A DNA stretch of 64,000 bases from Shigella phage KNP5, in the sequence record KX452698. One strand, written 5' to 3'. Positions 8,219 to 9,049 of the stretch are shown one piece after another. A program made the translations under genes and the position numbers. Within the stretch, counting starts at the first letter, position 1. The number at the start of each line of letters is the position of its first letter. Below the pieces are notes generated by a model. That model was not told where the DNA came from. It saw nothing but the letters and a program-made list of their open reading frames with translations, and ran no database searches.

Positions 8219-8294
8219 TGGTCGAGACAGTAGGGATCGAACCTACGACCTAGGACTTAGAAGGTCCTTGCTCTTCCTTCTGAGCTATGCCTCG
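8219..8294 (-). tRNA. tRNA-Arg (anticodon UCU), CCA encoded
   Basis: hand-folded cloverleaf: acceptor CGAGGCA/TGTCTCG, anticodon loop CUUCUAA, T-loop TTCGATC. Confidence 0.85.
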
Positions 8295-8298
8295 TATT

Positions 8299-8373
8299 TG
8301 GCGGACATGCATGGATTCGAACCATGGACCAATTGATTAACAGTCAACTGCTCTACCACTGAGCTACACATCC
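8299..8373 (-). tRNA. tRNA-Asn (anticodon GUU), CCA encoded
   Basis: hand-folded: D-arm GCTCAGTGGTAGAGC, anticodon loop CUGUUAA, T-arm CATGG-TTCGAAT-CCATG. Confidence 0.8.
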
Positions 8374-8377
8374 AAAT

Positions 8378-8464
8378 TGGTGGGGAGTGATGGAGTCGAA
8401 CCACCCGAGTCGCAATGACAATGGATTTACAGTCCACACCGCTACCTCTACGGGATAACTCCCC
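8378..8464 (-). tRNA. tRNA-Tyr (anticodon GUA), class II long variable arm, CCA encoded
   Basis: perfect 7-bp acceptor GGGGAGT/ACTCCCC, anticodon loop CUGUAAA, long variable arm; D-arm slightly irregular. Confidence 0.65.
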
Positions 8465-8476
8465 TAATTCTTAATT

Positions 8477-8551
8477 TGGTGGCCCTGGGTGGAATTGAAC
8501 CACCATCTGGCGATTATGAGTCGCTTGCTTGAACCTTCCAGCTACAGGGCC
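8477..8551 (-). tRNA. tRNA-Ile (anticodon CAU, lysidine type; Met not excluded), CCA encoded
   Basis: anticodon stem-loop GCGA-CUCAUAA-UCGC resembles bacterial tRNA-Ile2; acceptor GGCCCTG/CAGGGCC. Confidence 0.8.
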
Positions 8552-8552
8552 T

Positions 8553-8628
8553 TGGTGCTGATTGACGGAATCGAACCGCCGACCTTCTCATTACAAGTGA
8601 GTTGCTCTACCTACTGAGCTAAATCAGC
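8553..8628 (-). tRNA. tRNA-Thr (anticodon UGU), CCA encoded
   Basis: acceptor GCTGATT/AATCAGC, anticodon loop CUUGUAA. Confidence 0.85.
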
Positions 8629-8633
8629 AAAAC

Positions 8634-8723
8634 TGGCGGAGGCGATAGGATTTGAACCTATGAGTCGCCGGAGCGACTGCCGGTTTTCAAGACCGGTGCA
8701 TTAAACCACTCTGCCACGCCTCC
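8634..8723 (-). tRNA. tRNA-Ser (anticodon UGA), class II, CCA encoded
   Basis: acceptor GGAGGCG/CGCCTCC, anticodon stem-loop CCGGT-CUUGAAA-ACCGG, long variable arm. Confidence 0.85.
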
Positions 8724-8725
8724 AG

Positions 8726-8799
8726 TCTCCATACAAGGATTTGAACCTTGGACCTCCTGATCCCAAATCAGGCGCTCTACCAAACTGAGCTACACGGAG
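8726..8799 (-). tRNA. tRNA-Pro (anticodon UGG), CCA not encoded
   Basis: anticodon stem-loop CCTGA-UUUGGGA-TCAGG, T-arm CAAGG-TTCAAAT-CCTTG. Confidence 0.8.
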
Positions 8800-8809
8800 T
8801 AAATTAAAT

Positions 8810-8883
8810 TGGAGCGGATAATGAGAATCGAACTCACATCATCAGATTGGAAGTCTGAGGTAATGCCATTATACGATATCCGC
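8810..8883 (-). tRNA. tRNA-Gly (anticodon UCC), CCA encoded
   Basis: acceptor GCGGATA/TATCCGC, anticodon stem-loop TCAGA-CUUCCAA-TCTGA. Confidence 0.85.
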
Positions 8884-8888
8884 AAATT

Positions 8889-8975
8889 TGGTGCGAGAAG
8901 TGGGACTCGAACCCACAAGGAAATCATTCCGCAGCATTTTAAGTGCTGTGCCTTTACCAATTTGACCATTCTCGC
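8889..8975 (-). tRNA. tRNA-Leu (anticodon UAA), class II, CCA encoded
   Basis: acceptor GCGAGAA/TTCTCGC, anticodon stem-loop CAGCA-CUUAAAA-TGCTG, long variable arm. Confidence 0.85.
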
Positions 8976-8976
8976 G

Positions 8977-9049
8977 CTGGGAATAAAGGACTCGAACCTT
9001 TGCATCCTGGAATCAAAATCCAGTGCCTTACCAACTTGGCTAATTCCCA
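8977..9049 (-). tRNA. tRNA-Gln (anticodon UUG), CCA not encoded
   Basis: acceptor TGGGAAT/ATTCCCA, anticodon stem-loop CTGGA-UUUUGAU-TCCAG. Confidence 0.8.

Follow-up and report, generated by a model that had tools for sequence, protein, structure and literature searches.

The tRNA region of phage T4 holds eight genes (Gln, Leu, Gly, Pro, Ser, Thr, Ile and Arg), and we wanted to know whether Shigella phage KNP5 carries a larger set at the same place, whether the additional genes are real tRNA genes, and what they might do. For this, we analysed a stretch of 64,000 nt from sequence record KX452698, called here the window. The first-pass annotation, made by hand-folding, had proposed ten tightly packed tRNA genes, with tRNA-Tyr and tRNA-Asn lying between a CAU tRNA and tRNA-Arg. 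ARAGORN found these ten genes on the minus strand, in the proposed order and at the proposed coordinates, and no other tRNA gene in the window (Table 1). The two extra genes lie where they had been placed, with spacers of 12, 4 and 4 nt around them when CCA is counted within the genes, and their anticodon loops read CTGTAAA (Tyr) and CTGTTAA (Asn) as described. The list of eight given for T4 also agreed with the T4 record. When scored with the Rfam model RF00005 (gathering score 29 bits), all ten sequences reached the threshold and nine of them obtained 59-73 bits. Thermodynamic folding of the single tRNAs gave Z-scores of -0.9 to -2.3, which is uninformative. A segB-like ORF was searched for between 8200 and 9050 and none was found.

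Table 1. Position of the tRNA genes and neighbouring elements in the window.
Feature	Position	Strand	Characteristics
T4 middle-promoter-like site	9119-9143	-	MotA box TGCTTTA and TATTAT, separated by 12 nt; some 70 nt upstream of tRNA-Gln
tRNA-Gln(UUG)	8976-9049	-	ARAGORN ttg; CCA unencoded; abuts tRNA-Leu
tRNA-Leu(UAA)	8889-8975	-	ARAGORN taa; same sequence as the T4 gene
tRNA-Gly(UCC)	8810-8883	-	ARAGORN tcc; T4 match 73/74
tRNA-Pro(UGG)	8725-8799	-	ARAGORN tgg; CCA unencoded; 74/74 T4 gene positions match
tRNA-Ser(UGA)	8634-8723	-	ARAGORN tga; CCA encoded (also in T2L, not in T4)
tRNA-Thr(UGU)	8553-8628	-	ARAGORN tgt; T4 match 73/76; T2 has an ORF here
tRNA with CAU anticodon, best read as tRNA-Ile2 (lysidine type)	8477-8551	-	T2-type gene
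tRNA-Tyr(GUA)	8378-8464	-	ARAGORN gta; class II, long variable arm, A73-CCA
tRNA-Asn(GUU)	8299-8373	-	ARAGORN gtt; G73-CCA
Counterpart of the 27-bp preferred SegB site (candidate)	8297-8323	-	window sequence GGTTCGAATCCATGCATGTCCGCCAAA; site mapped in T2L tRNA-Asn
tRNA-Arg(UCU)	8219-8294	-	ARAGORN tct; T2-type; T4 match only 50/76; 2 positions off the T2 gene
ORF, 116 aa	7852-8202	-	between tRNA-Arg and the rnaD homologue; phrog_3355, family of unknown function
rnaD homologue (species 2 RNA)	~7741-7855	-	5' 38 nt and 3' 22 nt conserved, middle diverged
rnaC homologue (species 1 RNA)	7596-7734	-	98.6% identity over 139 nt
Intrinsic-terminator-like hairpin	7522-7545	-	10 pairs, 7 of them G-C, then a T run

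Since the interest of the locus lies in the two additional genes, we looked at their structure. A canonical tRNA is expected to show a cloverleaf with a 7-bp acceptor stem and D, anticodon and T arms, seven nucleotides in the anticodon loop (U33, a purine at 37) and a T loop of the form GTTCRANYC. By these features the Asn gene is a canonical tRNA gene, with 72.6 bits against RF00005 and all stems paired. Of its 75 positions, 16 differ from the Asn allele of phage T2, among them five stem pairs in which both partners have changed and pairing is preserved; among T4-like phages this allele is the minority one. The tRNA-Tyr gene passed RF00005 only marginally (30.2 bits). A GUA anticodon, a long variable arm that forms a stem and the A73 discriminator are the identity elements of tRNA-Tyr. 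The gene has all three, as expected of a bacterial-type (class II) tRNA-Tyr. Pairing holds in its acceptor, anticodon, variable and T stems, and CCA follows A73. The D arm had been noted as slightly irregular, and this irregularity is real: acceptor and D stems are joined by 4 nt (TATC) where the canonical connector has 2, and in this shifted register, with a proposed CCGT/GCGG D stem, pairing is seen in ten of ten homologues. We discarded the standard register with a 2-nt connector, under which all homologues have a C-C mismatch and which breaks down completely in KLB2, PG7 and AV126. A non-canonical connector of 4-5 nt is conserved in this family of phage tRNA-Tyr genes, which is common to at least eight phage genera. 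Across the ten homologues, covariation was seen in the anticodon, variable-arm, T and D stems; in the 15-nt variable arm, for instance, the stem GTC/GAC alternates with GCC/GGC and ATC/GAT. The closest relatives are the genes of T2 (86/87 positions identical), T6 (85/87) and rV5 (84/87). In a permissive scan the best clan match of the Tyr gene was tRNA-Sec, and this assignment was rejected, since RF01852 requires 47 bits and the gene obtained 34.4, and since its anticodon is GUA and not UCA. A thermodynamic fold alone did not yield a cloverleaf for tRNA-Tyr. Judged from the sequences, the compensated stem pairs and the covariation raise both the Asn and the Tyr calls above chance.

The first-pass annotation had itself pointed out that its claim would fall if the Tyr and Asn candidates proved to be the stable species 1 and 2 RNAs of T4 (rnaC and rnaD). 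We considered degenerate versions of these RNAs as well. In T4 these RNA genes adjoin the tRNA genes, and a T-arm-like motif in rnaC, GGTTCGAATCC, finds a match of 11 nt within the Asn gene. However, the rnaC and rnaD homologues of the window were found elsewhere, between 7596 and 7855 and well apart from Tyr and Asn, no similarity extends beyond the 11-nt T-loop motif, and both ARAGORN and Rfam call the two genes tRNAs. This explanation is thus refuted and we give it practically no credence.

The gene with a CAU anticodon had been read as tRNA-Ile, although ARAGORN labels it Met and a 2008 paper uses the latter name. The TilS determinants, as described by Ikeuchi and co-workers in 2005, are reportedly C4-G69, C5-G68 and an Ile2-type anticodon stem-loop. 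The acceptor stem GGCCCTG/CAGGGCC contains both pairs. The 3' acceptor strand is the same as that of E. coli tRNA-Ile(CAU) and the 5' strand is one base off, the 19-nt anticodon stem-loop AGCGACTCATAATCGCCAG is the same in the two tRNAs, and the best E. coli matches of the gene are annotated tRNA-Ile. Given this agreement with E. coli tRNA-Ile(CAU) in both acceptor stem and anticodon stem-loop, the gene is best read as a tRNA-Ile2 of the lysidine type, in support of the earlier reading, and we preferred this to Met.

We compared the region with those of the T-even phages. Position, strand and the first six genes (Gln-Leu-Gly-Pro-Ser-Thr) are shared with T4 (NC_000866, 70.9-72.5 kb), with 96% identity from within the CAU gene upstream (T4 72014-72636), and rnaC and rnaD lie downstream in both. 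In contrast, homology stops inside the CAU gene and returns only at rnaD/rnaC. T4 has the order Ile, segB, Arg, rnaD, rnaC, with segB in the place of Tyr and Asn; its Ile and Arg genes are so unlike (47/75 and 50/76) that those of the window were not taken as T4 orthologues; its Ser and Ile genes lack an encoded CCA, and the 116-aa ORF is missing. The agreement with T2L and T2 (AJ880101; AP018813) is much closer in this part: the segment lies between trna.2/trna.3 and rnaD/rnaC, lacks segB, reads CAU-Tyr-Asn-Arg and has a 351-nt ORF beyond the Arg gene. No difference to T2 was seen in the CAU, Leu, Pro and Ser genes, Tyr is 1 nt off and Arg 2 nt off, and Ser encodes CCA in both, a CCAG difference to T4 that had been remarked upon (PMC2330249). 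T2 nevertheless has nine tRNA genes to the ten of the window because a 402-nt ORF stands in the place of Thr. The T2 Asn allele is the diverged one mentioned above, and the Gln anticodon arm is off at 8 positions. Two tRNA-Gln alleles occur; their differences are confined to the anticodon arm and include positions 32 and 38 of the loop, and the arm found in the window is unlike those of T4, T2 and T6. T6 (AP018814) shares tRNA-Tyr but has segB and a T4-type Arg beside it and lacks Asn, Pro and Ser. Finally wV7 (HM997020), an example of a Tequatrovirus with eleven tRNAs, agrees in gene order from Gln through Asn and on to Arg and the downstream ORF, except for an extra tRNA-His between Asn and Arg.

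The set had been presented as expanded. This stands insofar as Tyr and Asn are absent from T4, but such a set is not unusual in a T4 relative, since the eight genes of T4, which go with the segB cassette, are the less common form. Escherichia phage KNP1 is 99.9% identical to the window across the cluster, and BW-1 is annotated with ten genes in the same order. At least 80% of the cluster is covered in 396 phage records, many of which annotate Tyr and Asn. About 440 records have the Tyr+Asn segment and about 645 the flanking trna.2/trna.3 genes, so that roughly two in three related genomes have the arrangement, while a near-complete match to T4 segB (at least 80% of the query) was found in 126 records; in some records a homing endonuclease lies within the cluster. 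The ten-gene set is the majority form among T4-like coliphages. It was also known before: it is annotated in hundreds of T4-like genomes, the T2L region (CAU, Tyr, Asn, Arg, without segB) was described in 2008 (Brok-Volchanskaya et al., PMC2330249), and experiments published in 2026 showed that the T-even tRNA-Tyr protects against host defence.

How the two forms came to differ is suggested by that 2008 work. In T4 x T2L crosses, SegB homing replaced about 1250 bp carrying Met(CAU), Tyr, Asn and Arg by the T4 cassette at an efficiency of nearly 100%, and the preferred SegB site sits within T2L's tRNA-Asn gene (PMC2330249). We rebuilt this site from the published description and the T2 sequence. 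The counterpart in the window is identical to it at 23 of 27 positions and keeps the five that the authors highlighted (G6, A16, G18, A26 and A27). By analogy, the T4 cassette would home into a T2-type allele such as this one through a cut inside tRNA-Asn, and T4 lacks Tyr and Asn because the cassette, made of the 3' part of the T4-type Ile gene, segB and the T4-type Arg gene, occupies their place. One might then argue that the extra genes persist mainly through selfish-DNA dynamics, in a region contested by homing endonucleases, so that the tRNA content of a phage records which cassette was the last to convert it and not selection for decoding Tyr or Asn. The near-complete replacement in crosses fits this, as does the mosaic nature of the locus, with Tyr, segB and a T4-type Arg in T6, an ORF for Thr in T2, His in wV7 and clusters that bear endonucleases, and both Asn and Gln come in sharply different alleles. 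We find the idea quite improbable, however: the compensated Asn pairs and the covariation in Tyr show that tRNA structure is under purifying selection, Tyr and Asn have been kept in some two thirds of the relatives, and tRNA-Tyr had a fitness effect in experiments (PMC13096335). It is very doubtful, too, that the Tyr connector and the swaps of Asn and Gln alleles are the marks of an arms race over tRNA arms, in which diversifying selection exerted by host nucleases that target tRNAs, or by SegB-type endonucleases, and not drift, would lie behind them.

We therefore return to the reading that Tyr and Asn are ordinary, probably functional members of a T2-type allele, and consider how they may be expressed. 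A search with the T4 middle-promoter pattern hit 14 sites in the window, where chance would give 2.3. The one upstream of tRNA-Gln lies in a region with 96% identity to T4 and, from its consensus, probably starts the tRNA transcript. A scan for sigma-70 promoters was at chance level (7 found, 6.9 expected). At the other end, the hairpin beyond the rnaC homologue probably terminates the unit of tRNAs and stable RNAs. The ten elongator tRNAs would thus be co-transcribed from a middle-type promoter, the transcript running on through the small inserted ORF, then species 2 and species 1 RNA, to the hairpin, and host enzymes would cut it into mature tRNAs as in T4. An ORF of the same size as the inserted one is present at this position in T2, BW-1 and wV7. 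It had no Pfam match. The flanking ORFs likewise matched nothing in Pfam, and the PHROG families to which they were assigned are all of unknown function.

Adaptation to codon usage had been offered as one reason for the additional genes. We compared 62 heuristic ORFs of the window with 42 E. coli genes from a 50-kb sample, the genes being unweighted by expression. Tyr (1.65-fold) and Asn (1.57-fold) are the most enriched amino acids, and their codons UAU and AAU are raised 2.3-fold and 3.2-fold. An enrichment of 1.6- to 9.8-fold was seen for AGA, AUA, UCA, GGA, ACA, UUA, CCA and CAA. The idea is thus supported by the amino-acid usage: Tyr and Asn have one isoacceptor each, and their tRNAs would therefore raise supply for the most over-represented amino acids, while the other eight would serve codons that this AT-rich phage uses well above the host sample. 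It could be that Tyr and Asn are kept purely for such supply to a Tyr- and Asn-rich, AT-rich proteome, with no role against defences, and the same logic does fit the rest of the cluster. Still, we think this the less likely case. Lys is almost as enriched (1.52-fold) and the cluster has no tRNA-Lys; T4 grows well without the Tyr and Asn genes, from a region called not essential (PMC2330249); and an anti-defence effect of tRNA-Tyr has been published for both T6 and T5.

These published effects bear directly on the other reason that had been offered, resistance to host nucleases that target tRNAs. Septu cuts tRNA-Tyr in the variable arm, and extra T6 tRNA-Tyr rescues infection, whereas T4, which has no tRNA-Tyr gene, fails to escape (Chihara et al. 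2026, PMC13096335). The tRNA-Tyr of T6 is itself cleaved and a single copy gives intermediate protection only (PMC13096335); for the resistance of T2 to Septu that account gives no reason. Likewise, T5 tRNA-Tyr counters retron-Eco7, depending on promoter strength (Azam et al. 2024, PMC11555353). The gene of the window is close kin to both tested tRNAs. Its two differences from T6 lie in stems with pairing kept, and the variable arm that Septu cuts is identical. The T5/BF23 gene belongs to the same family (83% identity, identical variable and T arms, a 4-nt acceptor-to-D connector), although its acceptor and anticodon stems differ and these phages are unrelated Demerecviridae with a much larger tRNA region. 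Carried over to this phage, the published results suggest that its tRNA-Tyr may refill the tRNA-Tyr pool once defences that cleave it (Septu PtuAB, retron-Eco7 PtuAB) are triggered. The part of the earlier idea that stands is protection by tRNA-Tyr, given a T6 gene only 2 of 87 positions away; the published data favour dosage over a nuclease-resistant tRNA. The SegB-driven amplification of T6 would be unavailable in cis, because the window has no segB.

For tRNA-Asn, a counterpart was sought in papers on tRNA-cleaving defences and no defence nuclease targeting it was found in them, a point in favour of pure supply. PrrC170 is not countered by a phage tRNA-Asn. The targets of colicin E5 include tRNA-Asn, which is not a phage-defence result. 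Colicin E5 is listed among tRNA-targeting nucleases in an eLife paper, and the PARIS paper makes no mention of Asn.

Altogether, these results make it very likely that the cluster is a segB-free, T2-type T-even (Tequatrovirus) allele in which functional tRNA-Tyr and tRNA-Asn raise translational supply and tRNA-Tyr, in addition, helps to counter defences. The unusual connector of tRNA-Tyr and the distinct Asn and Gln alleles could aid the study of how defences and homing endonucleases shape the tRNA genes of phages.

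Ten tRNA genes, all on the minus strand, were predicted by ARAGORN in the whole 64-kb window, in the order Gln(ttg), Leu(taa), Gly(tcc), Pro(tgg), Ser(tga), Thr(tgt), a gene with anticodon CAU, Tyr(gta), Asn(gtt) and Arg(tct). This order and the coordinates agreed with those of the first-pass annotation, as did the anticodon loops of Tyr (CTGTAAA) and Asn (CTGTTAA). The spacers flanking these two genes are 12, 4 and 4 nt long. With the Rfam tRNA model, nine of the ten genes scored 59-73 bits, tRNA-Tyr being the outlier (30.2 bits for a gathering score of 29). When scanned permissively, it matched tRNA-Sec best within the clan, a reading rejected because its 34.4 bits lie below the cut-off of 47 for that family.

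Features of the tRNA region and its flanks (window positions)
Feature	Position	Strand	Remarks
157-aa ORF	6994-7467	-	in the ~525-bp insertion; phrog_2280 (unknown function)
~525-bp insertion relative to T4	6988-7513		between the e.8 side and rnaC
Predicted strong hairpin terminator	7522-7545	-	directly beyond rnaC
rnaC homologue	7596-7734	-	98.6% identity to T4 rnaC
rnaD homologue	about 7741-7855	-	aligned to T4 rnaD through conserved ends
116-aa ORF	7852-8202	-	phrog_3355 (unknown function); between tRNA-Arg and the rnaD homologue
Middle-promoter-like match	8089-8114		within the 116-aa ORF
tRNA cluster	8219-9049	-	ten genes
Predicted counterpart of the SegB site	8297-8323	-	GGTTCGAATCCATGCATGTCCGCCAAA
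tRNA-Asn	8299-8373	-	minority allele
tRNA-Tyr	8378-8464	-	irregular D-arm
CAU gene	8477-8551	-	
tRNA-Gln	8976-9049	-	
Putative middle promoter	9119-9143	-	MotA box, 12-nt spacer, TATTAT; T4 consensus match; ~70 nt upstream of Gln
~580-bp insertion relative to T4	9155-9734		between tRNA-Gln and trna.2
N run	9416-9514		99 bases; within the ~580-bp insertion
N run	46815-47804		990 bases

Tyr and Asn are not the species 1 and species 2 small stable RNAs of T4, a possibility raised in the first-pass annotation. Homologues of the genes encoding these RNAs, rnaC and rnaD, lie elsewhere (7596-7855), and rnaC resembles the Asn gene in nothing but an 11-nt T-loop motif, GGTTCGAATCC. The rnaD homologue keeps the 5' 38 nt and 3' 22 nt of T4 around a strongly diverged centre of ~55 nt, in contrast to the adjoining rnaC, 98.6% identical to T4. 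By analogy with T4, the whole array would be transcribed as one unit and then processed by host enzymes; the middle-promoter consensus has 14 matches in the window against 2.3 expected by chance. The 116-aa ORF, which ends in a stop codon overlapping the first bases of the rnaD homologue, gave no Pfam match; it is present in T2, BW-1 and wV7 and absent from T4. At the stretch of the ~580-bp insertion, T2 and BW-1 carry a 171-aa ORF (phrog_2290, unknown function).

ARAGORN labels the CAU gene Met by its anticodon. Among 5,413 E. coli genomes, however, its best matches were genes annotated tRNA-Ile, and one of them, taken for comparison, has an unchanged 3' acceptor strand, a single different base in the 5' strand and an identical 19-nt anticodon stem-loop. 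The acceptor stem, GGCCCTG/CAGGGCC, contains C4-G69 and C5-G68, which are TilS determinants. Because of this likeness and these two pairs, Ile(CAU), the label chosen in the first-pass annotation, appears to be better than Met.

We then compared the cluster with those of relatives. T4 has the gene order Gln, Leu, Gly, Pro, Ser, Thr, Ile, segB, Arg, rnaD, rnaC, with segB, a GIY-YIG homing endonuclease gene, between Ile and Arg, so Tyr and Asn do lie beyond the T4 set as had been claimed. By local BLAST, T4 and the window share 96% identity from upstream of Gln into the CAU gene, inside which homology breaks (T4 72014, window 8532) and resumes only at rnaD and rnaC. The T4 CAU gene matches the window's at 47 of 75 positions, its 3' three quarters being dissimilar, and Arg(UCU) is dissimilar as well (50/76). 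T2, on the other hand, has an identical CAU gene, an Arg gene different at 2 positions and, as in the window, the order CAU, Tyr, Asn, Arg followed by a 351-nt ORF, with a 402-nt ORF at the place of the window's Thr. T6, with Thr, a T4-type CAU gene, Tyr, segB and a T4-type Arg, is a recombinant. The cluster of Escherichia phage KNP1 is 99.9% identical to the window's, and in BW-1 the identical ten genes are annotated in the same order. Coverage of the cluster reaches at least 80% in 396 phage records, with tRNA-Tyr and tRNA-Asn annotated in many. Some close relatives have an eleventh gene: wV7 shows the window's order plus tRNA-His between Asn and Arg (681-756 of the sequence examined), so that the accessory tRNAs of the locus, His counted, are Tyr, Asn and His. 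Of the four queuosine-carrying tRNA families, which colicin E5 cleaves, the set comprises three; nothing was found that ties it to a defence system.

Brok-Volchanskaya et al. 2008 sequenced this region in T2L, RB1 and RB3; it lacks segB and contains tRNA genes absent from T4, which for T2L are given as tRNA-Met(CAU), Tyr, Asn and Arg (PMC2330249). In T4 x T2L crosses, ~1250 bp comprising these four genes and two ORFs were replaced through segB homing, and the preferred 27-bp SegB site was mapped within T2L tRNA-Asn (PMC2330249). The 27-mer that we rebuilt from the T2 sequence, GGTTCGAATCCTATCACGTCCGCCAAA, agrees with the paper, in which G6, A16, G18, A26 and A27 distinguish the site from the Ser site (PMC2330249). 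The flanking trna.2/trna.3 genes were found in about 645 phage records, the Tyr+Asn segment (at least 80%) in about 440, and T4 segB, matched over at least 80% of its length, in 126. Given these numbers, the Tyr+Asn arrangement is the majority state among T4-like coliphages, and the eight-tRNA set of T4 is a minority state, the form with the segB cassette. The expanded cluster noticed at first pass is real and was correctly interpreted, yet the arrangement is already known and widespread.

To look at function, usage in 62 long window ORFs was set against that in 42 genes annotated in a 50-kb sample of E. coli K-12. The codons AGA (9.8-fold), AUA (6.1), UCA (4.1), GGA (3.9), ACA (3.6), UUA (3.1), CCA (1.9) and CAA (1.6), enriched in the window, are those read by the eight T4-type tRNAs, and Tyr (1.65-fold) and Asn (1.57-fold) are the two most enriched of all twenty amino acids. 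Codon and amino-acid usage therefore supports the proposed adaptation of tRNA supply to phage usage. The other proposal was resistance to tRNA-targeting nucleases. Septu PtuAB cuts tRNA-Tyr in its variable arm; T6 infection was rescued by additional T6 tRNA-Tyr, deletion of the tRNA region sensitised T6, and T4, which has no gene for tRNA-Tyr, could not evade Septu while T2 was resistant (PMC13096335). Similarly, T5 tRNA-Tyr counters retron-Eco7 depending on promoter strength, and strongly expressed E. coli tRNA-Tyr is equally effective (PMC11555353). Since promoter strength matters, the E. coli tRNA-Tyr works and Septu likewise cuts that of T6 (PMC13096335), protection is a matter of dosage and not of a nuclease-proof tRNA. 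The window and T6 Tyr genes differ at two stem positions with pairing kept, and share the same variable arm. The experiments with T6 and T5 support the defence idea for Tyr. No defence aimed at tRNA-Asn was found in the literature searched, so supply alone remains as the explanation for Asn.

As the first-pass annotation had remarked, the D-arm of tRNA-Tyr is irregular: with the standard 2-nt connector, the stem TCCC/GCGG contains a C-C mismatch. We parsed ten homologues (window, T2, T6, rV5, T5/BF23, Felixounavirus, Karamvirus PG7, Jiaodavirus, Sugarlandvirus and Phapecoctavirus). The standard register failed completely in three, and a single register, in which the acceptor stem is followed by a connector of 4 or 5 nt, paired in all ten. 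It gives a D stem CYGT/GCRG of three Watson-Crick pairs and one G-U, with a canonical D loop (A14, GG, A21). The homologues also show covariation in the anticodon, variable-arm and T stems. From this sequence comparison we infer that the phage tRNA-Tyr folds in this register, unlike E. coli tRNA-Tyr with its normal 2-nt connector; such a structure would account for the low scores against covariance models, among them the Cove value of 43.9 given for the rV5 gene. One tRNA-Tyr sequence family, with identical or near-identical variable and T arms and the same non-canonical connector, extends over at least eight phage genera of several families (T-even, rV5, T5/BF23, Felix-O1-like and others). 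Because the rV5 gene equals the window's at 84 of 87 positions although the phage families are unrelated, exchange of tRNA-Tyr between unrelated phages is suggested.

The window tRNA-Asn allele is at least 95% identical to 55 records. The T2-type allele, present in most Tequatrovirus among the matches listed, is 78.7% identical to it, with 16 of 75 positions different. In two anticodon-stem and three T-stem pairs both partners have changed and still pair, and no difference touches the anticodon loop, T loop, G73 or CCA. This points to selection on tRNA structure and speaks for a working Asn gene. Within the 27 bp that were mapped in T2L as the SegB recognition site, the window allele differs from T2 at four positions and retains all five highlighted ones. 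The window tRNA-Gln is that of T4 except for the anticodon arm (stem CTGGA/TCCAG, loop TTTTGAT, against TAGCA/TGCTA and CTTTGAC in T4, T6 and wV7; T2 has the T4 type plus one further change). The entire arm is swapped with pairing kept, loop positions 32 and 38 being altered, and the window type occurs in about 310 phage records, the T4 type in about 121. The small residue of most interest is the odd but conserved Tyr connector, the near-identity of Tyr across unrelated phage families and the sharply localised differences in Asn and the Gln arm, all of which may perhaps result from pressure by tRNA-targeting nucleases or homing endonucleases.
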